Positions 4,766 through 23,042 of a stretch of DNA of 32,000 bases are shown here, in pieces; position 1 is the first letter of the stretch; each line of letters starts with the position of its first letter. The stretch lies in contig OZ252021.1 of NCBI GenBank assembly GCA_965247685.1, forward strand, positions 330,001 to 362,000. The letters are read 5' to 3'. The position numbers and the translations under genes were made by a program. The notes below the pieces were generated by a model. That model ran no database searches, had not been told where the DNA came from, and saw only the letters and a list, made by a program, of their open reading frames with translations. The DNA is from Bdellovibrionales bacterium. Lineage in GTDB: Bacteria > Bdellovibrionota > Bdellovibrionia > Bdellovibrionales > UBA1609.

Positions 4766-4868
4766 AAATCCCCCCTATCCCAAAGTTAATGAATAGAACT
4801 CACTTTAAAATAAATTTTTAATCTAAATCAATAAATAAATTAAATTTTCACTTTAAAAGTTTCTTTAT

Positions 4869-4896
4869 TAAGGTTTAGGGCAAAAAAATCCGATAT
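4869..4896 (+). promoter_or_regulatory. Candidate sigma-28 (FliA)-like promoter upstream of the TadC-like/FHA operon
   Basis: TAAGGTTT (4869-4876), a 12-nt spacer, then TCCGATAT (4889-4896). The enterobacterial consensus is TAAAGTTT-N11-GCCGATAA. The element ends 41 nt before ATG 4938. Confidence 0.25.
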
Positions 4897-4937
4897 TTTG
4901 TTTAAATAACCCATTTTTAAAGAGGGAATGATTAAAA

Positions 4938-5849
4938 ATGACATTTGATTTTGGACTTATTCTTTTATTGAGTGCTTTACTCCTGCTGGCTGTAGCGGTG
5001 TATTTGTTTGTTTCTACCATCCTAAACATGAACTCAGATCAAGCTGGTCTCGCTCTGGCAGAAGAAAGTGAACAACACAAAGCTATCCCTTTAATCCACT
5101 TTTCTAAGCCTTTGGTTCAAAATTTAACCATTCAGCAAACTAAATACGTGAAAAGTAAACAATATAGACAGAATGTGCAGAAAAAAATTGTTTTTGCTGG
5201 ATTAGCTAAAGAACTCACTGTGGATGAATTCATCGGGCTTCAAATTCTTTGGGGAGTGATGTTCCCTCTAGGAGCTCTTATTTTAAATTTTGCATTGCAA
5301 ATCGGCTACCCTTTTTATGTTTTCATCATAGTAGGAGCTCTTGGTGCTTTTTTTCCTCATATCTACTGTAAAACTCTGTCTCAGAAAAAAGTTTTATCTG
5401 TGGAAAAAGAATTGCCATTTTTTATTGATCTTCTTGCACTCAGTACAGAAGCTGGCTTGGATTTAGTGGCATCTATTCAAAAAATCACAGAAAAAGCAAG
5501 TGCTCAATCTATACTGGCTCAGGAGTTTCATACCGTACTTAAAGAAATCACTTTAGGATCGAGTCGTAAAGAAGCTTTCGGTAATTTACAAAAAAGAATC
5601 GACTCAAAAGAAATTCAAAGCTTTGCAATAACTATACAAGATGCAGATGAAACAGGTGCCAGTGTTGCTCAAACGCTCAAGGCAAAATCAGAGCAAATGA
5701 GATATGAACGTTTTAACAAAGCTGAGCAGGCAGGAGCCAAGGCTTCACAAAAAATTCTTATTCCAATGATCATGTTCGTTTTACCTGCTGTCTTTATCGC
5801 TGTCTTTGCTCCTATAGCTTTAAGCTTTTATTATAAAAAAGGTGGTTAA
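4938..5849 (+). CDS. Type II secretion system F-family platform protein, TadB/TadC-like
   Basis: 303 aa with an N-terminal TM, a central TM pair and a C-terminal TM. A T2SS-F-type cytoplasmic domain is present (ELPFFIDLLALSTEAGLDLVASIQKI ... ADETGASVAQTL). Confidence 0.75.
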   Translation: MTFDFGLILLLSALLLLAVAVYLFVSTILNMNSDQAGLALAEESEQHKAIPLIHFSKPLVQNLTIQQTKYVKSKQYRQNVQKKIVFAGLAKELTVDEFIGLQILWGVMFPLGALILNFALQIGYPFYVFIIVGALGAFFPHIYCKTLSQKKVLSVEKELPFFIDLLALSTEAGLDLVASIQKITEKASAQSILAQEFHTVLKEITLGSSRKEAFGNLQKRIDSKEIQSFAITIQDADETGASVAQTLKAKSEQMRYERFNKAEQAGAKASQKILIPMIMFVLPAVFIAVFAPIALSFYYKKGG

Positions 5850-5851
5850 AA

Positions 5852-6265
5852 TTGGCAGCTCTAATCCACAAAGAAACGAATCAAGTTCTTTCTTCTCAGG
5901 TTGTACACTCTCACAGTCTTTTGAAAAGAATGAAGGGGCTCATCGGTTCACAAGCTTTGATCAAAGATCAGGCGATGTGGCTTAAACCATGTTCCAGTAT
6001 TCATACTTATTTCATGTCTTTTCCTATTGACGTAGTCTTTACAGATAAAAATCTTCGTGTCACAGGTGTCGTAGAAAATATTTCTCCTTGGAAAATTGTA
6101 AATCAAAAAGGACGAGTGATGAACATATGGCAGTCTTTTCTTTCTTCTGAAACCTACTCTATTATAAAATTATTTCAAAACTACAGCGCATTTGAATTTT
6201 CTGGCGGCACACTAGCCGACAAAATTAAAATTCAAGAAGGAGATCAACTCCATGTGGTCTATTAG
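5852..6265 (+). CDS. DUF192-family protein
   Basis: The TTG start is preceded by GGTGG 6 nt upstream. The DUF192-like core reads MWLKPCSSIHTYFMSFPIDVVFTDKNLRVTGVVENISPW ... FEFSGGTLADKIKIQEGDQL. There is a 2-nt gap to the upstream gene. Confidence 0.7.
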   Translation: MAALIHKETNQVLSSQVVHSHSLLKRMKGLIGSQALIKDQAMWLKPCSSIHTYFMSFPIDVVFTDKNLRVTGVVENISPWKIVNQKGRVMNIWQSFLSSETYSIIKLFQNYSAFEFSGGTLADKIKIQEGDQLHVVY

Positions 6266-7820
6266 ATTTTTAAACGGACCAAAAGCGGGAACTCAAATTC
6301 CTCTTTCCGAAGGAACTCATAACATAGGACGCTCTTCTTCCTGTGCTGTTCATATTCAAGCACCAGGAATATCCAAAGTCCATGCAGAACTTATCATCAA
6401 AGATAATAAACTCACTCTTTCAGATAAAAACTCCAGCAATGGAACTTTTGTTAATGGAGTAAAAATTAAAAAAGAAGTGATTGAAATGGGAGATCAAGTT
6501 TCTCTATTTGATATTGTCTTTGATATTATTCGTACTCATATTCCACAACAACCAATAGCTCCATTACAACAACCTTCTTCAAGCAATGGCAACGTTGTAC
6601 AACAAGAAAATCAATCCCTATATCAGCCACCCCCTGCCTCGTCCTCTAAGCTACAAAGCTGGTGGAGCCATTATCTAAAAACAGTCATCACACCTGGAAT
6701 CTACAAAATCCCTGAATGGGTTGAATTTAAATGGGCTGTAGGATTTTTTGCTATTGGTTTTATTCTTTTAGTCTCGATACTATCTGCTTTTCCTTTAACT
6801 CAAATATTAAAGTCTAGTGTCGAAAAAGAAAGCATGTACCATGCAGAAAGTATTGCCCTAGCCCTTGCTGAAAGAAATCGAACAATGTTGGCTGAAGGGT
6901 TGCAAACAGCTCTCACCACAGATTTTGCTCAAAGAAGACCTGGTGTTAAATCTGCTATGATTATTAACGCATCTGATGGCCGTATTATTGCTCCCATTGA
7001 AAAAATTCACACCTACCCCACTTATTCCTTCATTCATTCTGGAAGACGAAAAGGACAAAAAATAGTAGAAAAAATCGATTCATCCACTATCGGAGCTATG
7101 ATCCCTATTCAAGCATTTAATCCTAAAATTGATGCTATAGATGTCATTGCTTATTCCGTCGTTATTTACAATATGGGGGCTTTAGTTGTGGATAATAATC
7201 AAACTACAAGTCTTATTGTTCAATCGCTGGCTCTAGCCCTTATCATTGGTTCCTTGATGTTTTTCTTCATGTATCGAATGATTGTCTTTCCTTTTGAATC
7301 TATTGATGAACAACTCAACCAAGCATTAAAAGATAGTTCAAAAGGCATTTCAAACTCCTACCAATTTCCTGCTCTACAAAGTATATGTTCCAACATTAAT
7401 AACCTTTTGGAGCGTGTTCACACGAATCAAGATGCCATGTCTTCATCTCCTCAAGTGACTGTGAACCGGCAACATGAAATGAACAACCTTGTAGAATTAG
7501 TTGGATTCGCCTGCCTCTGCATTCAAGTCGAAACATCATCGATTGTAGCTATGAACTCTGCTTTTGAGCAACAAACTGGTCTTTCCTCTGAATATGTTTT
7601 ACATCAAAATATTGAAGATGTGGGTGATATGTCTTTAAAACAGCAACTTCAAAATGTGTCTGAACAAGTGACTCAAGATCCTTCCCAAATATATACCGAT
7701 CATCTAGAATTTAATAACACCTCTTTTCAAGTGACCGCACAGGGTGTGTACGGCAACCACACTGTAGTCTACATCCTTGTGGCTTTTATACCAGAAACTG
7801 AGGAGGAAGGTGCCTCATGA
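6252..7820 (+). CDS. FHA-domain membrane protein: FHA, TM, extracytoplasmic domain, TM, HAMP/PAS-like C-terminus
   Basis: N-terminal FHA signature NIGRSSSCAVHIQAPGISKVHAELI...SDKNSSNGTFVNG, then a P/Q-rich linker. Hydrophobic segments are WAVGFFAIGFILLVSILSAFPL and LIVQSLALALIIGSLMFFFMYRMIVF. The gene overlaps the DUF192 gene by 14 nt. Confidence 0.75.
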   Translation: MWSIRFLNGPKAGTQIPLSEGTHNIGRSSSCAVHIQAPGISKVHAELIIKDNKLTLSDKNSSNGTFVNGVKIKKEVIEMGDQVSLFDIVFDIIRTHIPQQPIAPLQQPSSSNGNVVQQENQSLYQPPPASSSKLQSWWSHYLKTVITPGIYKIPEWVEFKWAVGFFAIGFILLVSILSAFPLTQILKSSVEKESMYHAESIALALAERNRTMLAEGLQTALTTDFAQRRPGVKSAMIINASDGRIIAPIEKIHTYPTYSFIHSGRRKGQKIVEKIDSSTIGAMIPIQAFNPKIDAIDVIAYSVVIYNMGALVVDNNQTTSLIVQSLALALIIGSLMFFFMYRMIVFPFESIDEQLNQALKDSSKGISNSYQFPALQSICSNINNLLERVHTNQDAMSSSPQVTVNRQHEMNNLVELVGFACLCIQVETSSIVAMNSAFEQQTGLSSEYVLHQNIEDVGDMSLKQQLQNVSEQVTQDPSQIYTDHLEFNNTSFQVTAQGVYGNHTVVYILVAFIPETEEEGAS

Positions 7821-8776
7821 AGTCCTTAGCTTTGCGAAAAAAACCTATTGTTAAAACTAAACTTCGAGTTTTAAATGGTCCTTTAAAAAATCGATCTTTT
7901 AAATTAATTTCTGATCAGATATATATTGGTCGAGCGCCTGAAGTCAATGATGTCGTCCTTGCTCATGATCCTTATTGCTCTAGAAAGCACGCTTTACTCA
8001 CTTACTCTAAAAAAGGTCAATACATTGTGGCAAAGCTTTCAGAAAACCCTAATTTATACATCAATAAAAAGCTAGTCAAAACAAAAGCTCCGCTGAAAAA
8101 CAAAGATATTCTAATTGTAGGCCAAACCCAACTCCAATTAGAAGTGTTGAAAAAAGCAGAGATCGCTGTTGTTCCCAAAAACTCTCCAGCCCTTGTAGCT
8201 CCCCCTCCTCTACAAGATCACTTATCAGAAGAAAAAAAGAAATCTCCTCTGCCTCGATTGGTTATCATTGGGCTCTTTGTACTAGGAGGAATATTATTTT
8301 TTATGGATTCAAGTAAACAAGATGCTCAGAAAAAAGAACAAATAAAACTACGCACTCAACAGGATTTAGAAGAAGATATTAATACTTTGAAACAACAATC
8401 GGAAGATATTAAAAAATCAAATATAAGGACTCCTGCTTATAAAAATGCTCAAATTGCCTATTTAAAAGGGGTTAGAGATTTTAGAAAAGGATATTATGGT
8501 CGAGCAATTGAAAACTTTAGAACTTGTAAAACAATTTACCCTCAACATACACTTTGCAGCGGGTATTTAGAAAAATCCCAAATTAAATACGAACAACTAG
8601 CTCAAAACTATTTAGTGTTAGGTCAACAGTACAAAGAGAACAACCAATATACGTACTGTATGGCATCATTTAAAACTGTGATGAAAATGACGTCTCACAA
8701 CCTCAATCACCCCTTATACGAAGAGGCAGTGAGTAGTTACAATTTTTGTAGCCTTCAATTGAAGGATAGATATTAA
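7817..8776 (+). CDS. FHA-domain bitopic membrane protein with TPR-like extracytoplasmic part
   Basis: FHA signature YIGRAPEVNDVVLAHDPYCSRKHALL...ILIVGQTQLQLEV and a single TM (LPRLVIIGLFVLGGILFFM). The C-terminus is helical-repeat-like. An ATGA overlap joins it to the upstream gene. Confidence 0.7.
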   Translation: MKSLALRKKPIVKTKLRVLNGPLKNRSFKLISDQIYIGRAPEVNDVVLAHDPYCSRKHALLTYSKKGQYIVAKLSENPNLYINKKLVKTKAPLKNKDILIVGQTQLQLEVLKKAEIAVVPKNSPALVAPPPLQDHLSEEKKKSPLPRLVIIGLFVLGGILFFMDSSKQDAQKKEQIKLRTQQDLEEDINTLKQQSEDIKKSNIRTPAYKNAQIAYLKGVRDFRKGYYGRAIENFRTCKTIYPQHTLCSGYLEKSQIKYEQLAQNYLVLGQQYKENNQYTYCMASFKTVMKMTSHNLNHPLYEEAVSSYNFCSLQLKDRY

Positions 8777-10884
8777 TGTTCACTCTCACAGTTACAGCAA
8801 AAGGGCACAAAGATAAAGTCTACACACTAGACGATGCCACTAATATTATAGGACGTCTTGAGAGCAATCTTATTTTTTTAGATGCCTCTTATGGTGTATC
8901 CAGAAATCACCTTAAAATAACACCTTTGAATGAAAATTCATGGAAGGTCGAGTGCCTTTCTAATTTAGGTGGACTAGTTTTTAATGGAAAAGAAGTTTCT
9001 GAGTGCATCATTCAAGATAATGATAGCTTTTCATTACAAAGTTACACTTTCACACTTCGTAAAGAAAAAGGAGAATCTAAAAAAGAAAATATCTCCGCAG
9101 ATTTAAAATCTTCATCAGATGAGAATCTGAAAGAGTCCGCATCCAGTGATCATGAACCGTCTGTTCCTACATTTAATTCTGAAGACTCTCATTCTAAATT
9201 GCCTTTTGCTCCAGACGATAACCCAGACCTTCAGAAACAAAAAACTCCTTCTTTTCCATCAAAAATAGAAGAATATTCTCAGTTTACAGAAGCTCCGACG
9301 GTTATGCCTCAACTCAATAGCTATCTAAAACCTTATCTGATTGTTTCATTATCCGAAGATGAAGAAGATCAAGTTATTGAACTCAATGACAGAGATTTAT
9401 GGATAGTAGGACGAGATCCCTCTAGTGATATTTGCATTGAAGATATTAATATCAGCCGACATCACTTTAAAATCATAAAAAAAGGTATGGACTTTTTTAT
9501 CGAAGACCTAGGAAGTTCCAACGGAACATCCTTAAACAATAAAATTATAAAACCAAAAGAAACTCTACCTCTAAATAGCGGAGATATTATTTCTATTTTG
9601 AGTATAGAAATTTATTTTGAGATTAGAAATGTTAATTTTGAGAAAAAACAAGGGATTAACTTACCTGTAAAAGTCCCTTCCTCTGCAGATCCTCCCCTTC
9701 TTTCTATGGAGTCCTCACAGTCGAAGTCACCTTCTCAAAACCCTGAAAATCCAACACCCTTCAACGCTCCTGCTATTATCCCTAATGCGATTCTAAGCGA
9801 GACAATAATCACTTCTATACCTGAAAAAAAATCCTCTAAAAAGAGACTATTAATAATTTCTTTGATTATTTTAATGTTTGGAGGAATTCTATTCTTACTC
9901 TCTGAGTCCAAAAAAGGGAAAAAATCAGATCAAGAAAATTCAGAAGAACTGAATACTGGAACCTTTGAATCTCTAACTCTTGAAGAAAAAGAGAATGTGA
10001 AAAACCTTTACATCTTAGCTCAACAGCAGTACCAGATGAAAAAATTTGAACTATGTAATCAAACTCTCACGCAGCTCCATGATATTATACCTTTCTATCA
10101 AGAGTCCCAAGATCTCATTACAACTTGTCAAAGTGGTGCAGAAAGTGTTCAGATTCAATTAGAAATTGAAAATCAAAAAAAACAAGAAGAACAAGAAAGA
10201 AAAAAGCTACGTGAAATTGTTTCTCTCTGCAAAAATAAATTCAAATCTTTTCGAACTTTAGAAGCACTTGAAGAATGCTTAGCAGAAGCCACCACTATTG
10301 ATCCGGAGGATGAAGAACTTAATATTTTGAAGCTCAACTTTGAAAGTCAAGAAACAGCTAAAAAACAACGGGCGGAAGAATTACAAAATCTTAAGAATAG
10401 AGTTAAGAAAGAAACAAAAATTTATAACGAAGCTAAAAAATTAAAAGATAGCGATGGTCAAATCCTTAAAGCTATTGCAGCCTATAAAAAATTTCTTTTA
10501 AGAAATCATCCTGTAGTAATGGATAAAGTTGTTCAGACTGCTCGAGATGAATTATTTAAAATGGAGAGCACAGTACAAAGCCAAATAAAATCTTTTATGG
10601 ACGAATGCCAAGAACTCCTAGATTCTAAAAAATATAAACAAGCTCATCAAATATGTCAGAAAGTACTAACAGTCTCACCTAAAAACCAAAAAGCTCAGCA
10701 GGCTATGGATACCTCTATAAAAGAACTCAACGAAAAGCTCAAACCCTTGTTTAATGAAAGCGTCATTAATGAAAGCTTAGGTCAGGTCGAAATCGCTAAA
10801 AAGCAATGGGTTTTTATTATCGAACAAGACATCCCAGATGGAAAATACTCTTTCAAAGCACAGAAAAAACTCAGTAAATATTAA
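8776..10884 (+). CDS. Double-FHA bitopic membrane protein with long coiled-coil/TPR-like extracytoplasmic part
   Basis: FHA 1 is divergent (IIGRLESNLIFLDASYGVSRNHLKI). FHA 2 is canonical (IVGRDPSSDICIEDINISRHHFKII...EDLGSSNGTSLNN). A single TM (RLLIISLIILMFGGILFLL) is followed by a K/E/Q-rich helical C-terminal half. The start overlaps the upstream stop (TAATG). Confidence 0.75.
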   Translation: MFTLTVTAKGHKDKVYTLDDATNIIGRLESNLIFLDASYGVSRNHLKITPLNENSWKVECLSNLGGLVFNGKEVSECIIQDNDSFSLQSYTFTLRKEKGESKKENISADLKSSSDENLKESASSDHEPSVPTFNSEDSHSKLPFAPDDNPDLQKQKTPSFPSKIEEYSQFTEAPTVMPQLNSYLKPYLIVSLSEDEEDQVIELNDRDLWIVGRDPSSDICIEDINISRHHFKIIKKGMDFFIEDLGSSNGTSLNNKIIKPKETLPLNSGDIISILSIEIYFEIRNVNFEKKQGINLPVKVPSSADPPLLSMESSQSKSPSQNPENPTPFNAPAIIPNAILSETIITSIPEKKSSKKRLLIISLIILMFGGILFLLSESKKGKKSDQENSEELNTGTFESLTLEEKENVKNLYILAQQQYQMKKFELCNQTLTQLHDIIPFYQESQDLITTCQSGAESVQIQLEIENQKKQEEQERKKLREIVSLCKNKFKSFRTLEALEECLAEATTIDPEDEELNILKLNFESQETAKKQRAEELQNLKNRVKKETKIYNEAKKLKDSDGQILKAIAAYKKFLLRNHPVVMDKVVQTARDELFKMESTVQSQIKSFMDECQELLDSKKYKQAHQICQKVLTVSPKNQKAQQAMDTSIKELNEKLKPLFNESVINESLGQVEIAKKQWVFIIEQDIPDGKYSFKAQKKLSKY

Positions 10885-10895
10885 ATTTATTTTTA

Positions 10896-11303
10896 TTACT
10901 GAACTGCAAAAGTAAAGTTTTGAATACCAGATTTTTTGAAAGACTCAATAATTTCCATTACTCTGCCATGAGATACTCTTTGATCTGCAGAAATCACAAT
11001 TCGATCAGAATCTGGATTATTTTCCATTAATTTTCTGGCAAATAAAGACAGATCTTCTAAAGAGAGAACTTGATCATTAATAATAATATCTCCTGTGTGA
11101 GTGATTTTCACTCTGATAGATGATGATTTTATTTTTTTTGAAGATGAACTTTTAGGAAGCTGAATAGAAAGTCCTTCTCGCATCATTTGAGGAACGGAAA
11201 TCATAAATACGATCAGTAAAACAAGTACGATATCTACAAAGGGAACAATATTGATTTCTGAGATAAGCTCTTCGTTATAATCTTCTGTGTAGTCATTGGA
11301 CAT
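10896..11303 (-). CDS. ExbD/TolR-family biopolymer transport protein (stator minor subunit)
   Basis: 135 aa. Family hallmark INIVPFVDIVLVLLIVFMI with a TM that has the conserved Asp, followed by a periplasmic domain. GGAGG RBS lies 4 nt upstream of the ATG. Confidence 0.85.
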   Translation of the reverse strand: MSNDYTEDYNEELISEINIVPFVDIVLVLLIVFMISVPQMMREGLSIQLPKSSSSKKIKSSSIRVKITHTGDIIINDQVLSLEDLSLFARKLMENNPDSDRIVISADQRVSHGRVMEIIESFKKSGIQNFTFAVQ

Positions 11304-11489: not shown

Positions 11490-13745
11490 TTATACGGAAG
11501 ATTTTTCCCGAAGATAATTCAGTGCTGAACCCTTCCAGAACCATTGCACTTGATTCTCATTTAAAGAATGAGTGATCGAAATTTGAACTTTATTTCCATT
11601 TTCTTTTTGAAGCTCTAATTGATGGACACTGTTTGGAGCTAAAGACTCAATTTCCGGCAAACTCAAAACATCATACTCTTCAATTTGATCGTAATCTGAA
11701 GACTTCACAAAAATAAAAGGAATCACACCCTGTTTTTTCAAATTAGTCTCATGGATACGAGCAAAACTTTGAGCTAACACAAAAGCACAACCCAGATAAC
11801 GAGGAGTCATCGCAGCATGCTCTCGACTACTGCCTTCTCCATAGTTTTGTCCTCCAACAATTACCCAGTGTTGATCTTTGGATTTTAAATCACGGGCTAT
11901 CTGATTGAAAGGCAGTTTTTCTTTCGTCAGAGGATGAAATCCCTCTCCACTCATTTCATGAAAACTATTTTCAGCCGTTAGCAATAAATTATCTGAAATG
12001 CGATCCAAGTGTCCGCGATAACGCAGCCAATATCCTGCTGGAGAAATATGATCCGTGGTGCATTGTCCCTTCACCTTACAAAGCAGGGAGAGATTCTGAA
12101 AATATTGTTTTTTCCAAGGAGTAAAAGGAGTGAGTTTTTGTAAACGTTCCGATTCTGGTGCAATAGTAACCAAGACTGAAGACCCTCGAGGCTCTTGAAA
12201 ACCATGATAACTAAAACTAAAACCTTTTTGAGGGATAGCTTCTCCCTCAGGGGGCAGAAGTTGAACTTGATCATTAACTTTATCCGTTTCAGGATTAAAA
12301 TCGAGTTGACCTGCAAGGCCTATGGCTACAACCATTTCAGGACTGCCAATAAAAGATAAAGTTTCAGGATTGGCATCATTTCGACCTTTAAAGTTTCTAT
12401 TAAAGCTATTAATGATAGTATTTTTATCTCCTTTCTTGTAGTCCGGTCTATTCCACTGACCGATGCAAGGACCACATGCATTAGCTAAAACTGTAGCTCC
12501 AATAGCTTCAAAGTCCTCCATCATACCATCTCTTTCAATAGTTTTTTTAATCTGATCCGAACCTGGAGTAATAAGAAAAGGCTGTGGCATTTTTAATCCA
12601 TGCTTTCGAGCTTGGCGGGCTACATGAGCCGCTCTGCTAATATCTTCATAAGAAGAGTTGGTGCAAGAACCAATAAGACAGGCAGAAAGTTGACAATTCC
12701 AACCTCGCTTTTGTGCTTCCTTTTTGATTTGTTCCAAAGAATAACCCCAATCTGGAGAAAAAGGACCACAAAGATGAGGTTTTAATTCGGACAAATTGAT
12801 TTCAATCAACTCATCAAAGTAAGAATGAGGGGATTTTTTCACCTCTTCATCCGCCTGTAACAAAGACGAGTATTCTTCAGTAAGTTTTGCAATATCTTTT
12901 CTGTCAGTTGCCTTCAGATATTCGAACATAGAACCGTCGTAAGGGAAAAGTGAGCTTGTGGCTCCCATCTCAGCACCCATATTGGTGATTGTGGCTTTTC
13001 CCGTGCAACTCATAGATGCACAGCCTTCTCCAAAATACTCAATAATTCGATTGGTACCACCTTTGACTGTAAGAATTTTGAGTAATTTTAAAATCACATC
13101 CTTCGGTGCAGACCAACCTTTTAATTTTCCAGTTAAATGCACACCAACCAACTGAGGATGCTTCACTTCCCATTCTAAACCTGCCATCACATCTGCGGCA
13201 TCTGCTCCACCGACACCCACCGCCATCATACCTAATCCACCTGCATTCGGTGTATGAGAGTCTGTTCCTATCAGTAGCCCTCCAGGATAAGCATATTTTT
13301 CTAAAACCACCTGATGGATAATTCCAGAACCTGGCCCCCAAAATTCAATTCCATAACGGCTGGAAGCTGAAGATAAAAATTCAAAAACCTCCCCATGCTC
13401 ACTTAAAGCCTGCTTCATATCAATGGATTCACCTTTTTCTGCACGAATTAGATGATCACAATGAACGGTAGTTGGCTGATGAGTTTGAGTCTTTCTAGCA
13501 AGCATAAACTGCAAAAGTGCCATTTGAGCAGTCGCATCTTGCATAGCCACTCGATCCGGTATTAAAGATAAAAACCCCTTTCTGGATTGAGGGAGTGGAC
13601 TGGATGAACTTAAATGAGAATAAATAATCTTTTCTGAAAAAGTGAGAGGACGATTAATCACCTGTTGTATTTCATCCAAACGAACTTTCATCTTTTTATA
13701 ATTTTCTAAAACTTCAAAATATAGTTTTTTCATGGCTAATGACAC
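11490..13745 (-). CDS. acnA: Aconitate hydratase, short (mitochondrial-type) form
   Basis: 751 aa. Fe-S ligand blocks GTDSHTPN, IGSCTNSS and NACGPCIGQW are present. A GTG start at 13745 follows AGGGA; an alternative ATG lies at 13733. Confidence 0.95.
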   Translation of the reverse strand: MSLAMKKLYFEVLENYKKMKVRLDEIQQVINRPLTFSEKIIYSHLSSSSPLPQSRKGFLSLIPDRVAMQDATAQMALLQFMLARKTQTHQPTTVHCDHLIRAEKGESIDMKQALSEHGEVFEFLSSASSRYGIEFWGPGSGIIHQVVLEKYAYPGGLLIGTDSHTPNAGGLGMMAVGVGGADAADVMAGLEWEVKHPQLVGVHLTGKLKGWSAPKDVILKLLKILTVKGGTNRIIEYFGEGCASMSCTGKATITNMGAEMGATSSLFPYDGSMFEYLKATDRKDIAKLTEEYSSLLQADEEVKKSPHSYFDELIEINLSELKPHLCGPFSPDWGYSLEQIKKEAQKRGWNCQLSACLIGSCTNSSYEDISRAAHVARQARKHGLKMPQPFLITPGSDQIKKTIERDGMMEDFEAIGATVLANACGPCIGQWNRPDYKKGDKNTIINSFNRNFKGRNDANPETLSFIGSPEMVVAIGLAGQLDFNPETDKVNDQVQLLPPEGEAIPQKGFSFSYHGFQEPRGSSVLVTIAPESERLQKLTPFTPWKKQYFQNLSLLCKVKGQCTTDHISPAGYWLRYRGHLDRISDNLLLTAENSFHEMSGEGFHPLTKEKLPFNQIARDLKSKDQHWVIVGGQNYGEGSSREHAAMTPRYLGCAFVLAQSFARIHETNLKKQGVIPFIFVKSSDYDQIEEYDVLSLPEIESLAPNSVHQLELQKENGNKVQISITHSLNENQVQWFWKGSALNYLREKSSV

Positions 13746-13851
13746 ATAATCCCTAGAACTAGTTAAGAAGGAAATACTATCAAAATAATCAACCGAAGTC
13801 TAGAGAGAGAGACCTATTTTGTCAATTTTTCTGGGTTTATAAAATACTTAT

Positions 13852-13880
13852 TTGACTAAGGAAACCAGTAAATTCAAAAT
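13852..13880 (+). promoter_or_regulatory. Candidate sigma-70-type promoter for the 13954 OMP gene
   Basis: TTGACT (13852-13857), a 17-nt spacer, then CAAAAT (13875-13880). Pattern match only. Confidence 0.2.
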
Positions 13881-13953
13881 TGTATAGGCTTCAGGTTGAA
13901 TGCTATTCAGATCGAAAGAACTGAGCATTTTTCATTTTTAAGGTGAGAGGATA

Positions 13954-14604
13954 ATGAAAAAAATTTTGCTGATATTATTTATATTTTTATCTGTACCTTC
14001 GAGCTGGGCGGGAATCTTTGTAGAGCCTTATTTAGGAACAGGTGTTGGAACTTTTATTAATAGTTGGCGCTACGGTTACTCCCTAGGAGGCCGTTTAGGT
14101 TATTCCAGATGGGGACTCATGATGGGGGTAGATGCTAGTTATTCTAGTTTTTCCTATTTTGATTTTAGCATCGACTATATAGGACCAGAATGTGAAAATG
14201 CTGTGGGTTTGGGGCAACTCGCACCTTGTAAAGTACTGTCTGGAAATGAGTACGAACAATCGGATGTGGGTATTTATCATAATATCTTCTTAGGCCCTTC
14301 AGTAGCTTTTGGTTTACCTTTCATTATAGATGCTTATGCTTCGCTAGGGTGGAATTGGTCTAACACTTCATATAAGCGTGATAATTTTTCAATGGACGGT
14401 CCCGCTGTAAAAGTAGGGGTCTCTTACCTGAATCTGCCCTTCCTAAGATTGAATTTAGAATTACAAGCCCTCCTCATGGAATGCTCTAATCACGATGAGA
14501 TTATTCAACAATCTTGCCAAGAAAAAACAACTCTCAACTATGCTAATCCTATTTTCATTGGACAAATTTATTTAAGTATTCCAATCAACACAGGTATTTT
14601 TTAG
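13954..14604 (+). CDS. Small outer-membrane beta-barrel protein (putative)
   Basis: Signal peptide MKKILLILFIFLSVPSSWA. The sequence has alternating aromatic/Gly-rich strands and a C-terminal ...NTGIF (terminal Phe). Two Cys pairs lie in predicted loops. GAGAGG RBS. Confidence 0.5.
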   Translation: MKKILLILFIFLSVPSSWAGIFVEPYLGTGVGTFINSWRYGYSLGGRLGYSRWGLMMGVDASYSSFSYFDFSIDYIGPECENAVGLGQLAPCKVLSGNEYEQSDVGIYHNIFLGPSVAFGLPFIIDAYASLGWNWSNTSYKRDNFSMDGPAVKVGVSYLNLPFLRLNLELQALLMECSNHDEIIQQSCQEKTTLNYANPIFIGQIYLSIPINTGIF

Positions 14605-14729
14605 TTGATGTAAACTCTCCGATGAATGAACACATGAAGATGCAGTTTTATTGAATTTTTCTTTGCACAAGCAGAAGTGATGCATGATTTTTAAACATTG
14701 TTTAGGGCAATAAAAATTTTATTCAAGTA

Positions 14730-14758
14730 TAGACAAGAATAAAATCTCTTAGTATAAG
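14730..14758 (+). promoter_or_regulatory. Candidate sigma-70-type promoter for thyA-folA
   Basis: TAGACA (14730-14735), a 17-nt spacer, then TATAAG (14753-14758), about 20 nt before ATG 14779. Pattern match only. Confidence 0.2.
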
Positions 14759-14778
14759 ATGAGGTCTAAAGGAAACTT

Positions 14779-15570
14779 ATGGTTTCATATTTAAATTTAT
14801 TACAAAAAGTGCTAGAACAAGGTGTTCAACGGGAAGATCGTACCAGAACAGGAACTATCAGCATCTTTGGTCATCAAATGCGTTTTGACTTGTCTAAAAC
14901 TTTTCCCCTACTCACCACTAAGAAAGTCCACCTTCGCTCTATTATTCATGAATTGTTATGGATACTAAAAGGGGACACCAATATTCAATACCTCAAAGAT
15001 AATAATGTTCGTATTTGGAATGAATGGGCTGATGAAAATGGAAATTTAGGACGTGTATACGGAGCTCAATGGAGGAGTTGGAGAAAACCTAATGGTGAAA
15101 CTCTTGATCAAATCACCTCAGTCATCGATCAAATTAAAAATAATCCTCACTCCAGAAGACATATGGTGGTTGCATATAACCCTGGAGAGTTAGAAGAAAT
15201 GGCTCTTCCTCCCTGCCATGCTTTTTTTCAGTTTTATGTCGCTCAAGGGACTTTATCTTGCCAGCTTTATCAAAGAAGTGCGGATATTTTTCTAGGACTT
15301 CCTTTTAATATTGCAAGTTATTCGTTGCTTACAATGATGATGGCTCAAGTGTGCGGCTTAAAGCCTGGAGAATACATTCAAACCATCGGTGATGCTCATG
15401 TCTATACGAACCATATGCCTCAAGTTCTCCAGCAATTACAAAGGGAACCCCGCCCTCTTGCTAAAATGTATATTGAACCGCAAGCTTCTCTATTTGATTA
15501 TAAAATAGAACATTTTCACCTCAGTGACTATAATCCTCATCCTCGAATTCGTGCTGAAGTTTCTATATAA
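14779..15570 (+). CDS. thyA: Thymidylate synthase (ThyA type)
   Basis: 263 aa. N-terminus [23 protein letters not shown], catalytic-Cys block [12 protein letters not shown], and DAHVYTNH. Confidence 0.97.
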
Positions 15571-19190: not shown

Positions 19191-19469
19191 ATGACATTTT
19201 ATCCCTCTGATACTGCACACATTAAAAAAGAAAGGGAAAAAGCTCGTAAATTACGCTCCACTTCTTGGTGGAAAAATAAAATAAGCAAACAACTTTGCTA
19301 TTTTTGTAAAAAGAAATTTTCAAAAACTCAATTGACTATGGATCACCTGATTCCTCTTGTCCGAGGCGGTAAAAGTATAAAAAATAACATAGTTGTGTCT
19401 TGTAAGAGTTGCAATTCACAAAAAAAATATGAAACAATAGTTGATCAAAGGTTGAAGAAATTAAAATAA
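19191..19469 (+). CDS. Small stand-alone HNH endonuclease
   Basis: 92 aa with a full HNH/zinc-finger layout: C36-x2-C39, D51-H52 (gat cac at 19341-19346), N65/N66, and C71-x2-C74-N75. The N-terminus is basic. Confidence 0.85.
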   Translation: MTFYPSDTAHIKKEREKARKLRSTSWWKNKISKQLCYFCKKKFSKTQLTMDHLIPLVRGGKSIKNNIVVSCKSCNSQKKYETIVDQRLKKLK

Positions 19470-19485: not shown

Positions 19486-21144
19486 ATGACTTCTAAAATT
19501 ATAACAAGCTCAACAGCAGAATATTTTGCAAAAAATTTACAGCAAGTAGGGTTTTCTTCACCTACTAAAGCCGTACTGACAACACTCAAAGAATCTGTAG
19601 ATAACTCTTTAGATGCTTGTGAAGATCACAGTATTTTACCTGAAATTAAAATCAGTATTAAAAAACTTTCTAAAGGCTCTGCTCGAAACACTGATCTGGT
19701 AGAAATTATTGTTGAAGATAATGGTCCAGGTCTTGAAGCAAATGATCTCCCCAAAGTATTTGGAGAATACCTTGCCTCCTCTAAGTTTGGAAAAGGCCGT
19801 TGCTCCAGAGGACAACAAGGAATTGGTATTTCTGCAGCAACAACATGGGCGCAATTAACACATGCAAGTGGTGTCAAAGTCATCAGTAAAACAAAAAAAA
19901 TGAAAAAAGCGCTACAGACACAAATTGATGTAGATATTAGAAATAATAAAGGACTGATGAAAAACAAGACTCTCATCAACTGGGATAAATCTCATGGAAC
20001 TAAAGTCACCTTTAAAATCGACGGACGTATTCAGTTAAATGGAGACGGAGGACTCATCACTTACCTAGAAGGAACATCCATTGTAAACCCTCATTTATCT
20101 TTAGAATATACACTCCTTGATCAACCTTCTCGAACGATTAAAAGAGTAAGTAATATCTCCCCTATAATCCCTCCTGCAACACTTCCTCATCCTCACACAA
20201 TGAAGCTTGGAGAATTTATTTCTCATGCTCATTTATATGACAGCATCTCTTTAAAAAAATTCCTCAAGAAAGGGTTTTCAAAAGTTTCAGATAATACAAT
20301 CAAAAATTTTACCAAACAAGGAATACCAAAATCATTTTTGGATAAAAATTTATCTAATCTTAAAGATCAAGATTACAAAATCATTTTTAAAGCTATGAAT
20401 GATACAGATATGCCTTCTCCCTCTACTCAATCCGTCCTCACTATAGGAGAAATAAGTTTATCAAACAGCATCACCCGCTTAGGCAATGTTGATTTTTTTA
20501 GTGTTATTACCAGAAAGCCCACAATTTGTGATCACAAACCTGTTGTTGTAGAAGTTGCTATTGCACGATTTACCTCTACATCACAAAAATCGGAGGATGG
20601 ACAACAAGAACCATCGATTCAACTTTTACGTTTTGCCAATCGAGTTCCTTTGCAATTCGATAAAGCGGCTTGTGCTATTACTAAATCTGCTGAATCTGTT
20701 AACTGGAAAGCTTATGGGTTATCTCAATCTAAAAACAGCCTTCCCACAGGACCTTATGTTTTTGCTATCTCTATTACTTCACCTTTTATCAAATTTAAAA
20801 ATGCTTCTAAAGAAACTATTGATGCCAGTGAAGAACTTGTAGATGAAATTCGAAAAACTCTCATGCAAGCAGGACAAAAACTTTCTCGACACATTCGAAA
20901 AGAACAAAAAGCTCAAGAGCTTGAGAGAAAAATGCAACATATTGAAAAATTTGTACCTATTTTTATCAAAAAACTGGCAGATATTACTTCTGCATCTTCG
21001 ACAAGAATTAAAAAAGCTGAAAAAGGCATAAAGAAAATTTTAGGGCGAGATGCTCAGGAGGCAGAAAAAGCTTTAAAACAAGCTCAAGGCCGCCTCGATA
21101 ACCTTAAACAAAAAAAGGTAGTAAATCTTCATAGGAGTAAATAG
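19486..21144 (+). CDS. top6B: DNA topoisomerase VI subunit B (GHKL ATPase)
   Basis: Bergerat-fold boxes ESVDNSLDA, VEDNGPGL and SRGQQGIGIS. Transducer-domain blocks LLRFANRVPLQFDKAACAI and the switch-Lys region KFKNASKETI are present. It looks collinear with archaeal Top6B as I recall it and has a K/E-rich C-terminal tail. Confidence 0.9.
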   Translation: MTSKIITSSTAEYFAKNLQQVGFSSPTKAVLTTLKESVDNSLDACEDHSILPEIKISIKKLSKGSARNTDLVEIIVEDNGPGLEANDLPKVFGEYLASSKFGKGRCSRGQQGIGISAATTWAQLTHASGVKVISKTKKMKKALQTQIDVDIRNNKGLMKNKTLINWDKSHGTKVTFKIDGRIQLNGDGGLITYLEGTSIVNPHLSLEYTLLDQPSRTIKRVSNISPIIPPATLPHPHTMKLGEFISHAHLYDSISLKKFLKKGFSKVSDNTIKNFTKQGIPKSFLDKNLSNLKDQDYKIIFKAMNDTDMPSPSTQSVLTIGEISLSNSITRLGNVDFFSVITRKPTICDHKPVVVEVAIARFTSTSQKSEDGQQEPSIQLLRFANRVPLQFDKAACAITKSAESVNWKAYGLSQSKNSLPTGPYVFAISITSPFIKFKNASKETIDASEELVDEIRKTLMQAGQKLSRHIRKEQKAQELERKMQHIEKFVPIFIKKLADITSASSTRIKKAEKGIKKILGRDAQEAEKALKQAQGRLDNLKQKKVVNLHRSK

Positions 21145-21147
21145 TAA

Positions 21148-22317
21148 ATGGCAAAAGAAAAATTAATTCGCATCCGAAAACTCAACAAAGATATTCCTAA
21201 AATATCTTATAACCTGTGTGATCGCATGCTCAAAGATCTAGAGCAGGCAAAACGCCCAATACTTGAAGCTGTGAAATGTTCTCTTGATAACACTGCTTAT
21301 GATGTTAAAACGGGGTATCTTGTTCCTCTTGGTAAAAAAATTCAATCTGAACTGAATGTTTCTTCAATTCGGAAATTATCACGCACTGTTTTTATGATGG
21401 AAATTCTATTGAATAATCTAAAATCTGGTGCAGTAAATACAAAAAGGGAGCTTTACTATATTGCAAAAGGTATTGTGAGGTCTGATAAATTTTTCAAACC
21501 TCTCGACTTTGATGAACAATCCGATTGTGACGGTATTGTTGACTTTATTTGCGACATGCTAGAAGTCTATCGTGAAGAAATGAACTGTTTTGCCAATGAT
21601 CGAGGGGGACAAACTTACTCTCAGCACTTAGTTGTCACAGAAACACTTGCAGATGGAACCAAAGCTGTTGTTGATTTAAGCTCTTTAGGAACCACCCCTT
21701 TTCAACCTAAAAATAAACCTCAACAATTTCAGGTGAAGAAAAAGGGAACATTAAAATTTGGCCTCATTGTAGAATCTGAAGGTACAGCCAACACTTTGGT
21801 GTCTAATGGCATTACTAAAAGGCACCCTTGTGTGGTGATTGGTGCACAAGGTGTTCCAAGTAATGCAGTGAGAGGTTGGTGTAAAACTCTACAAGATCAG
21901 ATACAAATTCCACTATTTTTCTACGGAGACTTAGATGCTTACACTTTACAAAATATTTATAGAACTTTAAAAGCAGGTTCGGCTGCTAGTTTAATTAGAA
22001 ATTCAGACTTTAGCGCTCCAAAGGTTCATTTTTTAGGCCTTCTTCCAGAAGATATTACTAAATATGATCTCCATTGTTACGAAGTCTCTCCTTCAGACCC
22101 TAGCGAAATGCGATCTTTAAAAAAGGCTAGAGATGCTCTTCAAAACGATCCCTTTTTCAAAGATAAAAACAATAAAAAATTAGCTCAAATTTTAAAATGG
22201 CTCCTTAAAGAAAAAAAACGTTGTGAACAACAGTCTGTTTTTTCTACTGATCCAACAAATCCACAAGTGTTGGAAGAATTTATAGTTAAAAAAATTAAAA
22301 CTAAAAATTATATTTAA
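21148..22317 (+). CDS. top6A: DNA topoisomerase VI subunit A (Spo11 family)
   Basis: 5Y-CAP catalytic block KRELYYIAKG (Y103/Y104, nt 21454-21459). Toprim Glu is in LIVESEG (E209, nt 21772-21774). The DxD motif is in FFYGDLDAY (D261/D263, nt 21928-21936). A GGAG RBS is present and the start is 3 nt after the top6B stop. Confidence 0.9.
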   Translation: MAKEKLIRIRKLNKDIPKISYNLCDRMLKDLEQAKRPILEAVKCSLDNTAYDVKTGYLVPLGKKIQSELNVSSIRKLSRTVFMMEILLNNLKSGAVNTKRELYYIAKGIVRSDKFFKPLDFDEQSDCDGIVDFICDMLEVYREEMNCFANDRGGQTYSQHLVVTETLADGTKAVVDLSSLGTTPFQPKNKPQQFQVKKKGTLKFGLIVESEGTANTLVSNGITKRHPCVVIGAQGVPSNAVRGWCKTLQDQIQIPLFFYGDLDAYTLQNIYRTLKAGSAASLIRNSDFSAPKVHFLGLLPEDITKYDLHCYEVSPSDPSEMRSLKKARDALQNDPFFKDKNNKKLAQILKWLLKEKKRCEQQSVFSTDPTNPQVLEEFIVKKIKTKNYI

Positions 22318-22373: not shown

Positions 22374-23042
22374 TTAATTTTTAAATGGTAGAGAATCTTC
22401 TTTGGAATCTTTTGTTTTGGGAATTTTTAAAGATTGTACATATAGGTTATAACCACTCTCAATGACTTTAAAATTTTGTAAAATACATTTTAACTGTCGG
22501 CGTAGGTAATTATAAAAAACAACAGCAGGAATAGCCACAATCAAACCCACAGCAGTAGCCAGCAGCGCCTTCGTAATACCCAACATCACAAAAGAGTTTT
22601 CGGAGGATGTTTCCAAAGCATTAAAAGAGTGCATCACACCAAACAAAGTTCCTAAAAGACCCACAAAAGGAGCGGTGGAACCTACATTAGCTAAAATACT
22701 CAATCGAGCTTCTAATTTATTTTTAGAATTCTGAACAAAAGATTGAAAAATAGAAATAACTAAATCCGGTTTCTTCTCAATATACAAAGACACCCAATCA
22801 AATCCTGGATTGTAGGAGGGATTATAATTTTGACTAGTTAAAGATTTAATCCAAATAAGATTATCACTGCTCACAGCCTGTTTTATTTCCTTACAAGCTT
22901 TTTCAGTTGATTTTTTCCAACCTCTTAAAAGAAAGAAACGTTCCATAAAAACTGCAAAACTGAACACACTCATAAAGAATAAAATCCACAGTGTAATTTC
23001 GTGACCCCACTGTGCAATAAAAAAAAATGGATTCAACAACAT
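22374..23042 (-). CDS. MotA/TolQ/ExbB-family proton-channel protein (stator major subunit)
   Basis: 222 aa with three TM segments. Family blocks are LANVGSTAPFVGLLGTLFGVMHSF and GITKALLATAVGLIVAIPAVVFYNYL. Confidence 0.85.
   Translation of the reverse strand: MLLNPFFFIAQWGHEITLWILFFMSVFSFAVFMERFFLLRGWKKSTEKACKEIKQAVSSDNLIWIKSLTSQNYNPSYNPGFDWVSLYIEKKPDLVISIFQSFVQNSKNKLEARLSILANVGSTAPFVGLLGTLFGVMHSFNALETSSENSFVMLGITKALLATAVGLIVAIPAVVFYNYLRRQLKCILQNFKVIESGYNLYVQSLKIPKTKDSKEDSLPFKN

Follow-up and report, generated by a model that had tools for sequence, protein, structure and literature searches.

The DNA analysed here, referred to below as the window, is a stretch of 32 kb from a Bdellovibrionales bacterium. 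A tadC-type gene and four genes following it are tightly packed on the plus strand, and a sixth gene that usually belongs to this group is found elsewhere in the window. The features are as follows.

4766 to 4937, no strand assigned: divergent, AT-rich intergenic region of 172 nt between divIVA (minus strand) and the operon; presumed promoter
4938 to 5849, plus strand: P1 (303 aa, one T2SSF domain), TadC/CpaH/KilH-type inner-membrane platform subunit, orthologue of Bd0470
5852 to 6265, plus strand: P2 (137 aa, TTG start), DUF192 protein (PF02643 at 50.4 bits), Bd0471 position
6252 to 7820, plus strand: P3 (522 aa), sensor-like membrane protein with a Pfam FHA match at 60.1 bits, Bd0472 position
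7817 to 8776, plus strand: P4 (319 aa), FHA-TM-TPR-like protein (Pfam FHA 43.5 bits, Yop-YscD_cpl 46.7 bits), Bd0473 position
8776 to 10884, plus strand: P5 (702 aa), 2xFHA-TM-TPR-like protein (two Pfam FHA stretches, 99.2 bits in total), Bd0474 position
10896 to 11303, minus strand: ExbD/TolR-family gene (PF02472), convergent with P5, whose stop codon is 11 nt away
22374 to 23042, minus strand: ExbB/TolQ/MotA-family gene (PF01618), directly downstream of P6
23056 to 23733, minus strand: P6 (225 aa, counted from the public gene-call start; the maximal ORF extends to 23760), predicted cytoplasmic PP2C-fold pseudophosphatase and displaced sixth gene of the operon, Bd0475 position

The original prediction had described the five plus-strand ORFs at 4938-10884 as a TadC-like protein, a DUF192 protein, and three membrane proteins with four FHA domains, and both the coordinates and all four tight junctions agree with the sequence. 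The P1 stop codon TAA ends at 5849 and the TTG start codon of P2 lies at 5852, with a Shine-Dalgarno-like AAGGTGG read from the sequence upstream of P2. P2 and P3 overlap by 14 nt (6252-6265), P3 and P4 by the ATGA at 7817-7820, and P4 and P5 at a TAATG at 8776. Profile HMM matches to Pfam, all above the gathering cut-offs, place T2SSF in P1, DUF192 in P2, one FHA domain each in P3 and P4, and two in P5; NCBIfam profiles also bear the domains out. The five genes thus form one operon-like block, as had been proposed, but the description as a single operon was incomplete, the usual sixth gene being P6. A consensus scan of the 172-nt intergenic region gave no more promoter-like sites than shuffled sequence, and therefore the operon promoter is only presumed. 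It was also confirmed that no ATPase, secretin, pilin, prepilin peptidase, or Hanks kinase domain is encoded by the ORFs of at least 80 aa in the 32 kb. Likewise, no tadA, tadB, rcpA, or flp was found in the window.

P1 matches PF00482 at 62.3 bits and has four TM segments predicted from hydropathy. It shares 47-66% identity with its relatives in 80 Bdellovibrionales loci and 52% with the product of the same-position gene in a Bdellovibrio sp. locus. In the related loci, the P2 gene always comes after P1. Neither a TM or hydrophobic segment nor a signal peptide was found in P2, and a sequence search for relatives of known structure returned none.

The three FHA proteins had been thought to share one layout, with N-terminal FHA domains, a TM segment, and a TPR-like part. 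This layout holds for P4 and P5 but not for P3. P4 consists of an FHA domain, a single predicted TM segment (145-163), and a helical, TPR-like periplasmic tail. P5 has FHA1 (1-95), a linker, FHA2 (about 185-285), one TM segment (358-376), and a helical/TPR-like periplasmic domain of about 320 aa; faint TPR matches were found in P5 homologues. In contrast, P3 has an FHA domain (1-94), a disordered linker (98-125), TM1 (162-180), a Cache/PDC-like periplasmic domain (about 224-311, in a periplasmic stretch of about 140 aa enclosed by the two TM segments), TM2 (321-346), HAMP-like helices, and a PAS domain (407-514), the last two being cytoplasmic. P3 itself shows weak Pfam/NCBIfam matches to PAS_9, PmrB, and WalK, and Pfam PAS matches are on record for some of its homologues. 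In a Foldseek search with the AF2 model of P3 (pLDDT 88.4), the top match was a WalK model (404 columns, E 6.6e-14), and YscD and PscD were also among the fold matches. P3 residues 130-515 match WalK over the TM, extracytoplasmic Cache/PDC, TM, HAMP, and PAS parts, whereas the DHp and catalytic ATPase domains of WalK-type sensor histidine kinases are missing and an FHA domain is present at the N-terminus instead. Judging from the model, the architecture of P3 resembles the front half of a sensor kinase, and P3 looks like a signal transducer.

Are the FHA domains of these proteins still able to bind phosphothreonine (pThr)? The pocket residues that had been named as decisive (Arg, Ser, and His) are retained. 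Across 72-78 orthologues, none of the four FHA domains varies at the phosphate-binding Arg and Ser. The GR, SxxH, and NGT motifs are kept in 78 P3 orthologues, and in an alignment of P5 FHA2 with GarA and EmbR the pocket residues are conserved. In P4, the GR and Ser do not vary and most orthologues keep the His, while the Asn-Gly-Thr loop is degenerate; of the four domains, P4 FHA and P5 FHA1 lack this loop. I infer that the FHA domains of this operon bind pThr. The idea of pThr-dependent gating is plausible but unproven.

It was revealed that P6 is 41% identical (E 6e-63) to the product of the gene directly after P5 in a related locus (L004). P6 adjoins P5 in 57 of 63 related loci, while in the window it has moved 12 kb away, onto the other strand. 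A profile search with P6 against PDB sequences returned PP2C phosphatases, and the top 50 Foldseek matches of its AF2 model (pTM 0.79) are all PP2C structures (TM-score up to 0.71), with PppA (6jkv) among the best. The metal-ligand Asp residues of PP2C motifs 1, 2, and 8 are missing from all 66 P6 sequences compared, whereas two distant (outgroup) operons retain intact PP2C motifs including the metal-binding Asp. As far as its motifs tell, P6 is a catalytically dead PP2C fold, and the ancestral operon included a PP2C-fold gene. Thus, a link to Ser/Thr phosphorylation fits; on the other hand, phosphorylation could be vestigial, since the window has no Ser/Thr kinase and the phosphatase homologue is inactive. 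By gene order, the ExbB/TolQ/MotA-family gene belongs to the syntenic surroundings of the operon: 42 of 57 related loci carry an ExbB-ExbD pair at a distance of 0.7-4.2 kb downstream of P5, while the ExbD gene of the window is about 11 kb from its usual ExbB partner.

Among the 66 related Bdellovibrionales loci with enough DNA, P1-P5 are colinear in 65. Thus, the arrangement is not due to chance. The operon is present even around the most distant P5 homologues (21-24% identity), and 48 of 52 related loci have an oppositely oriented divIVA upstream. Since synteny extends over the whole neighbourhood, from divIVA to exbBD, throughout the order, conservation of gene order is partly inherited and not all functional. 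The host lineage is uncultured and of low GC content (36%), and its contigs and chromosomes are about 1.0-1.4 Mb. The six-gene order was also found in the Bdellovibrio sp. locus, beside divIVA/proC/yggS. Two of its genes encode products of 386 and 225 aa, in line with the published 386 aa for Bd0473 and 228 aa for Bd0475.

The tadC locus of B. bacteriovorus HD100 has the same order of domains (T2SSF, DUF192, FHA with PAS, FHA, 2xFHA with TPR, and a hypothetical protein of about 225 aa) and the same surroundings, with divIVA/proC/yggS upstream, exbBD downstream, and TadC away from tadB. It differs in that the sixth gene and exbB of the window are displaced by 12 kb onto the other strand, and the window proteins share no more than 23-52% identity with their counterparts in the Bdellovibrio sp. 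The published layout of Bd0474 comprises the same three domains as P5. It is known that the B. bacteriovorus Tad machine is spread over six loci, with tadC always apart from tadB and beside FHA/TPR/PAS genes. Thus, the view that a canonical Tad locus does not account for the module was not sustained. Neither prolonged attachment nor invasion is possible without this machine, and TadC is found at the invasive pole. A transposon mutant of Bd0470 (tadC) neither attaches to prey nor kills or rounds it, while a Bd0474 transposon mutant attaches without killing or rounding; both were complemented. Two studies disagree on tadC inactivation: a transposon mutant was obtained in one, whereas deletion was not possible in the other. 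Bd0474 binds Bd0075 via the C-terminal domains in a validated interaction, and AlphaFold-Multimer predicts a Bd0473-Bd0475 contact (ipTM 0.604). Since Bd0470-Bd0475 have been named and phenotyped, with one interaction validated, the window essentially shows the tail of a characterised tad/kil locus, the very case that the original prediction had listed against itself. Identity between the FHA proteins and their Bdellovibrio sp. orthologues is only 25-30%, and therefore the predation phenotypes may not transfer.

The suspected parallel with the Kil apparatus of Myxococcus xanthus proved sound. Bd0470 is the reciprocal-BLAST orthologue of KilH, and MXAN_4648 (FHA+TPR) and MXAN_4649 (FHA) are directly beside kilH, a likeness in domains and position. 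KilD, another FHA+TPR protein, is needed for killing and forms foci at prey contact, and contact-triggered gating has already been raised for Kil. However, kilH adjoins kilG (the TadB counterpart), kilB, and pilin genes, the Kil ATPase KilF itself carries an FHA domain, and no DUF192, Cache-HAMP-PAS, or PP2C-like gene is among the listed Kil-cluster genes. The threonine-phosphorylation pathway of T6SS (PpkA kinase, PppA PP2C phosphatase, and Fha1; TagH) also has FHA and PP2C-fold proteins encoded with an envelope nanomachine. In contrast to that pathway, the operon has no Hanks kinase, its PP2C fold lacks the metal ligands, three membrane-anchored FHA proteins replace one soluble Fha1, and the machine is a Tad pilus, not T6SS.

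In summary, the locus is likely the tadC operon of this bacterium, orthologous to Bd0470-Bd0474 with the Bd0475 orthologue 12 kb away, in which the proteins have the roles proposed below (a probability of roughly 0.7).

It is unlikely, though the strongest of the other readings, that the three FHA proteins form a phosphorylation-independent ring or cage fixed in the inner membrane around the Tad platform, like SctD/PrgH of type III secretion, with the FHA domains as contact modules. All three exceed the cut-off of PF16697 (Yop-YscD_cpl), they share with SctD (YscD/PrgH/EscD) a cytoplasmic N-terminal FHA fold, a TM segment, and a periplasmic domain, and the tight translational coupling suggests fixed stoichiometry. 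The lack of a kinase in the window, the dead P6, and the missing NGT loops would also suit such a scaffold. However, the parallel is skin-deep: the periplasmic parts are TPR-like/helical or Cache-like rather than ring-building modules, the SctD equivalog TIGR02500 gives 30.9 and 17.9 bits, below its cut-off of 86, and there is no T3SS gene context. The invariant Arg and Ser, the transducer-like P3, and the intact PP2C motifs of distant operons also speak against it. SctD-type FHA folds are not known to keep the phosphate-binding Arg/Ser residues, whereas the pThr-pocket residues are retained here.

It is improbable that the FHA module serves another envelope machine for gliding or polar growth/division, the tadC link being operon housekeeping. 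The candidates would be GltG-like FHA-TM-TPR gliding proteins with an ExbB/ExbD- or AglRS-type motor, or division via the divIVA neighbour. Such a role would suit the weak NCBIfam matches to GltG, the frequent exbBD and divIVA neighbours, and a related locus (L003) in which an exbB-exbD-exbD cluster is immediately preceded by another FHA protein gene, but the GltG matches reach only 31-34 bits against a cut-off of 650 and variable genes lie between the operon and exbBD, which in the window is split and inverted while P1-P5 are intact. Moreover, tadC itself takes part in the overlapping junctions, FHA genes also flank Myxococcus kilH, and the Bd0474 mutant is blocked after attachment, much as in Tad depletion. 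A self-contained new machine on one orphan platform subunit, independent of the Tad pilus, is the least credible reading: no other tad gene lies within the 32 kb and the small genomes of the relatives (about 1.0-1.4 Mb) could have lost the main tad locus, but the same orphan tadC arrangement works within a complete, dispersed Tad machine in B. bacteriovorus, and no type IV filament platform subunit is known to be active without its ATPase and pilins.

If the locus is the tadC operon, P1 would serve as the TadC/KilH platform subunit in a Tad pilus machine (type IVc, Kil-like). As in B. bacteriovorus, the other parts of this machine (TadZA/TadA, TadB, RcpA, and Flp pilins) may have their genes at separate loci; the remaining tad genes are presumably present in the same genome. 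The co-translated partners would form an accessory, pThr-reading control and scaffold layer around the platform in the inner membrane. P3 may sense a periplasmic or envelope cue with its Cache-like domain and relay it inward via HAMP and PAS; in the cytoplasm, the FHA domain of P3 would dock on a pThr partner. P4 and P5 may cross the inner membrane to link cytoplasmic pThr sites to periplasmic TPR partners, as in the Bd0075-Bd0474 pair, and P6 probably binds an FHA protein or phosphosite without dephosphorylating it. Thus, the locus is of a known kind, the counterpart, in an uncultured bacterium related to Bdellovibrio, of a predation operon already known, and its proteins may jointly license the steps that follow attachment, namely prey killing, rounding, and invasion.

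The five genes P1 to P5 lie on the + strand of the window between 4938 and 10884 and occupy the positions of Bd0470 to Bd0474 in Bdellovibrio bacteriovorus. P6, which usually follows as the sixth gene of the operon (the Bd0475 position), was found displaced to the minus strand. The genes and their relevant neighbours are listed here, the Pfam domains of P1 to P5 being all above the curated cut-offs.

4938-5849, + strand: P1, T2SSF domain (TadC-like)
5852-6265, + strand: P2, DUF192 domain, TTG start
6252-7820, + strand: P3, one FHA domain
7817-8776, + strand: P4, one FHA domain
8776-10884, + strand: P5, two FHA domains (FHA1 and FHA2)
10896-11303, minus strand: exbD, following P5 and convergent with it
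19191-19469: small HNH endonuclease gene, directly before the topo VI pair
19486-21144: topo VI subunit B, member of a type IIB topoisomerase pair
21148-22317: topo VI subunit A/Spo11-like, the other member of the pair
22374-23042, minus strand: exbB, with P6 right upstream
23056-23733, minus strand: P6, 225 aa by the start of the public gene call (ORF to 23760), 41% identity to P6 of a related locus, L004 (E 6e-63)

The predicted domains (T2SSF, DUF192 and four FHA) are thus all present, and the tight junctions were read from the sequence as predicted: a 2-nt gap, a 14-nt overlap, an ATGA overlap and a TAATG overlap. After the 2-nt gap from P1, the TTG start of P2 has AAGGTGG upstream, and a purine-rich Shine-Dalgarno-like stretch lies ahead of each downstream start. 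A consensus scan for promoters and terminators gave sites no commoner than in shuffled sequence, and scanning the window for Rfam families and tRNAs found nothing. The first ~1 kb (1-1010) has 30% GC and holds no ORF of at least 60 aa, tRNA or Rfam match.

A domain search of the ORFs of at least 80 aa bore out the original prediction: domains of a pilus ATPase, secretin, pilin, prepilin peptidase or Hanks kinase are absent from the window. Within the 32 kb there is likewise no gene for TadA, TadB, a secretin or Flp pilins. The remaining ORFs of that size either are housekeeping genes or match no Pfam family. Among them are genes for arginase, a DksA-like protein, a Na/Ca exchanger, ribE, divIVA, exbD, aconitase, thyA, folA, purD, an aldo-keto reductase, the HNH protein, topo VI B and A, exbB, 2-oxoacid dehydrogenase E2, lipA, a DsbA-like protein, asd, truA, rplM and rpsI. 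Topo VI is uncommon among bacteria; the pair found here (19486-22317) comes directly after the small HNH gene and a 258-aa ORF that matches no Pfam family.

P1 is a protein of the TadC/CpaH/KilH type, that is, a polytopic inner-membrane protein of ~300 aa with a single T2SSF/GspF domain (PF00482, residues 162-289, 62.3 bits against a cut-off of 25.2). Its TM segments are predicted at residues 7-25, ~98-140 (two segments) and 273-291. PDB sequence searches with P2 and with a P1 profile gave chance-level matches only, and a literature search found no link between DUF192 and Tad pili.

Do the three FHA proteins share one layout, with an FHA part, a TM segment and a TPR-like periplasmic part, as was originally proposed? 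Hydropathy indicates one TM segment each in P4 (145-163) and P5 (358-376), as expected, but two in P3 (162-180 and 321-346), whose layout resembles that of a sensor. An AlphaFold2 model of P3, made with 80 homologues as input (mean pLDDT 88.4), has the following parts.

Residues 1-94: FHA domain
Residues 98-125: disordered linker
Residues 159-214: TM helix continuing as a long periplasmic helix
Residues about 224-311: periplasmic alpha/beta domain
From residue 315: second TM helix
Up to residue 397: two HAMP-like helices
Residues 407-514: PAS fold

Taken whole, the P3 model has its best PDB match in a WalK sensor-kinase model (404 columns, E 6.6e-14). Weak sequence matches of P3 to WalK, PmrB and PAS agree with the model, and Pfam PAS matches are recorded for some P3 homologues. 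From the AlphaFold2 model, the WalK fold match and the weak sequence matches, P3 is predicted to be an FHA domain set ahead of the first half of a sensor kinase and to lack a kinase domain, rather than being an FHA-TM-TPR protein. The match covers the sensor and transmitter half of WalK only. A complete sensor histidine kinase was considered and rejected, since P3 has no DHp or HATPase_c domain and the chain ends after the PAS fold at residue 522. BLAST between P4 and P5 showed that they share the FHA domain only; the similarity of their periplasmic parts is not significant (E 0.42).

The FHA domains score 60.1 bits in P3, 43.5 bits in P4 and 99.2 bits over two stretches in P5 (Pfam cut-off 20.7). 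The modelled FHA domain of P3 superposes on GarA, OdhI, FhaA and the FHA domain of B. bacteriovorus DgcB, with target TM-scores of 0.85-0.96. Pocket conservation was assessed in alignments of 72-78 orthologues per protein. Across all four domains, the Gly-Arg pair and the Ser of Ser-x-x-His show no or almost no variation, and the His is retained in 55-77 orthologues, its chief alternative being Gln. The Asn-Gly-Thr loop between beta6 and beta7 is kept in the P3 FHA domain (Asn in 78/78) and in P5 FHA2 (72/72), but is degenerate in the P4 FHA domain and in P5 FHA1. When P5 FHA2 was aligned to GarA and EmbR, every pocket residue was in place. Judged by these residues, two of the FHA domains appear fully canonical and two partly so. 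The loss of phosphothreonine-binding residues that would have spoken against the original prediction was not seen, and all four pockets are under selection.

It might be supposed that the FHA proteins form a phosphorylation-independent scaffold resembling SctD. The SctD (YscD/PrgH) model TIGR02500 matches P3 and P4 within the first ~60 residues only, at 30.9 and 17.9 bits against a cut-off of 86, and SctD identity was rejected. SctD has ring-building periplasmic domains, whereas the periplasmic parts of the operon FHA proteins are Cache-like or helical. These non-SctD domains and the conserved pockets argue against such a scaffold.

Is the operon conserved in related genomes? P5 homologues with identities down to 26% have the same order of T2SSF, DUF192, FHA, FHA and double-FHA genes. 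A scan with a TadC alignment, taking one genome per species, gave 152 relatives. The best 80 of the 152 were taken further; they have 47-66% identity and nearly all are labelled Bdellovibrionales, Pseudobdellovibrionaceae or Bdellovibrio sp., while a few have a broader or evidently wrong label. Related loci were then counted by searches with the operon's own profiles, using the loci with enough DNA as denominators. P1 to P5 are colinear in 65/66 loci, P6 (~225 aa) directly follows P5 in 57/63, an ExbB-ExbD pair lies 0.7-4.2 kb further downstream in 42/57, and divIVA lies upstream on the opposite strand in 48/52. Even beside the remotest P5 homologues (21-24% identity; the outgroup loci L087 and L088) the operon is still present. 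The operon is universal in Bdellovibrionales, and the absence of synteny that would have counted against the original prediction was clearly not found.

The sole locus of the 66 without intact P4 and P5 (L062:12880-15412) has fragments scoring 79 and 28 bits, which may be pseudogenes or assembly errors. One contig labelled 'MAG: Streptomyces griseus' (L079, CALQIT020000030.1) has the complete Bdellovibrionales operon, preceded by divIVA, and is probably mis-binned or mislabelled. In L003, a second FHA membrane protein (666 aa) is encoded directly upstream of exbB-exbD-exbD on the same contig as the operon (11733-14979), which hints at a recurring pairing of FHA proteins with ExbBD. The proteins of the window map to a 1.28-Mb contig, and the closest relatives (L005, L006 and L020) have chromosomes or single long contigs of only ~1.0-1.4 Mb, while Bdellovibrio sp. 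NC01 has 3.98 Mb. These sizes suggest that the group is a reduced-genome lineage.

The counterparts in predatory bacteria have been studied. All six genes (302, 116, 557, 386, 689 and 225 aa) recur in a Bdellovibrio sp. locus, beside maf, yggS, proC and divIVA; P1 to P6 share 52, 36, 30, 27, 25 and 23% identity with them. In strain HD100 the operon consists of Bd0470 (tadC), Bd0471, Bd0472, Bd0473 (FHA, 386 aa), Bd0474 (two FHA domains and an extracytoplasmic TPR part) and Bd0475 (hypothetical, 228 aa) (PMC12034629). Over 282 aa, P1 has 52% identity with its positional counterpart in the Bdellovibrio sp. operon, where the neighbours are identical; its orthology to the functionally studied TadC Bd0470 follows from operon content and gene lengths that match the published ones. 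Bd0470 is itself an orthologue of KilH, by reciprocal BLAST, and of CC_2940 (Seef et al. 2021, PMC8460266). A Bd0470::tn mutant does not attach to, kill or round prey, while a Bd0474::tn mutant attaches but does not kill or round prey; complementation was achieved for both (Duncan et al. 2019, PMC6561027). In a bacterial two-hybrid assay, Bd0474 and the TPR protein Bd0075 bind each other via their C-terminal domains (2025 study, PMC12034629), and a contact between Bd0473 and Bd0475 was predicted by AlphaFold-Multimer with an ipTM of 0.604 (PMC12034629). The B. bacteriovorus Tad machine is complete but dispersed over six loci, its tadC gene lies apart from tadB and adjoins FHA, TPR and PAS genes, and TadC is located at the invasive pole (Tesseur et al. 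2026, bioRxiv 10.64898/2026.07.08.737194). The parallel drawn with FHA proteins of the Kil system of Myxococcus was correct: kilH is flanked by MXAN_4648 (FHA and TPR) and MXAN_4649 (FHA), and KilD (FHA and TPR) is needed for killing (Seef et al. 2021, PMC8460266).

The window thus represents a locus type already known, not a new kind of system. The idea that it is an orphan without explanation was mistaken; since Bd0470-Bd0475 and the KilH orthology are published, this is essentially an already characterised locus with named orthologues. A true orphan machine, independent of Tad, in the genome of the window is improbable given the B. bacteriovorus precedent. Another improbable alternative is that the FHA module serves gliding or division, as its exbBD and divIVA neighbours might indicate. 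GltG of adventurous gliding motility was rejected as an identity, with NF033760 scores of 30.9 and 33.6 bits far under the cut-off of 650, the exbBD link is broken in the window, and the Kil parallel indicates Tad. Synteny extends over the entire neighbourhood, and the splitting of exbB from exbD leaves P1 to P5 intact; for these reasons a functional tie to exbBD or divIVA was not favoured.

In most related loci exbB and exbD are adjacent, but in the window these two minus-strand genes are separated by ~11 kb that contains aconitase, thyA, folA, purD and topo VI, among other genes. Since exbD follows P5 while P6 and exbB lie elsewhere, an ancestral P5-P6-exbB-exbD block has been broken up here. 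The nearest relatives (L001 and L005-L007) likewise lack P6 after P5.

What is P6? A profile of 52 orthologues searched against PDB sequences had only PP2C phosphatases as top matches, tPphA (E 1e-3) being followed by Stp1 and PppA. In Pfam, 20/52 orthologues have weak SpoIIE matches and 4/52 weak PP2C matches. With an AlphaFold2 model of P6 (pLDDT 76.7, pTM 0.79), all the top 50 PDB matches in Foldseek are PP2C proteins, including tPphA (E 2.2e-10, TM-score 0.71), the T6SS phosphatase PppA and PstP. P6 thus has the PP2C fold. The motifs were compared in 66 sequences (65 retrieved orthologues and the window protein) aligned with the genes at the P6 position of L087 and L088. The Asp residues of motifs 1, 2 and 8 are present in 0/66 P6 sequences, the window protein having P, T and G there, and the motif 11 Asp is also not kept, in a less certain region of the alignment. 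The Asp of the GDS motif is replaced as well (HMMER alignment). In contrast, the sixth genes of L087 (7900-8652) and L088 (3749-4486) keep the NED/QED, DGxGG, TDG and DN motifs and may encode an active phosphatase. This sixth gene is followed in L088 by a response-regulator gene of 474 aa.

The P6 (Bd0475) family, with 341 representative clusters nearly all of ~225 aa, is a family of PP2C pseudophosphatases, predicted to be inactive from the lost metal-binding Asp residues. Because the outgroup keeps the motifs that the Bdellovibrionales copy has lost, the ancestral operon probably had a working PP2C beside the FHA genes, and Bdellovibrionales probably retain a dead copy of it. No paper in the literature searched identifies Bd0475 or P6 as PP2C; Bd0475 is 'hypothetical' in the 2025 operon study, from which the words 'phosphatase' and 'kinase' are absent (PMC12034629). 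In threonine phosphorylation of the T6SS type, a Hanks-type kinase is encoded together with FHA and PP2C genes, whereas no Pkinase domain was found here, either in window ORFs of 80 aa or longer or in the Pfam annotations listed for genes called in the retrieved related loci.

The envelope module linked to phosphothreonine and the parallel to Kil, both part of the original prediction, are supported by the kept pocket residues and the Myxococcus genes, while the orphan is not. It is likely that P1 is the TadC half of a TadB/TadC platform in a dispersed, Kil-like Tad pilus machine, and that P3, P4, P5, P6 and perhaps the DUF192 protein would form an accessory layer reading phosphothreonine at the platform. 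P3 would sense a cue in the envelope or periplasm, while P4 and P5 would link cytoplasmic phosphosites to periplasmic TPR partners, and P6 would be a non-catalytic binder. The B. bacteriovorus phenotypes place the action of the module after attachment. In its boldest form, to which I give a probability of roughly 0.3, the tadC operon would be a complete, kinase-less phosphothreonine checkpoint of the predatory Tad pilus, made of a Cache-HAMP-PAS/FHA sensor, two trans-membrane adaptors of the FHA-TPR type and a PP2C pseudophosphatase whose role is to protect or present a phosphosite. Contact with prey, once sensed in the periplasm, would make the platform pass from attachment to killing and invasion, the phosphatase being active in outgroups and a dead binding module in Bdellovibrionales. 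Such a checkpoint would be the Tad counterpart of the T6SS threonine-phosphorylation pathway.

The question at stake is how obligate predators get from touching prey to killing and invading it. The leading candidates at present are Tad/Kil machines, with the adjoining FHA proteins as obvious candidate regulators. The 'hypothetical' Bd0475 family is a PP2C pseudophosphatase whose outgroup version looks active from its motifs. The comparative analysis gives concrete, testable handles on the known tadC operon. The universal operon, the selected FHA pockets, the sensor-like FHA protein and this pseudophosphatase with its active-looking outgroup version speak for a layer of control over the predatory Tad machine by Ser/Thr phosphorylation.
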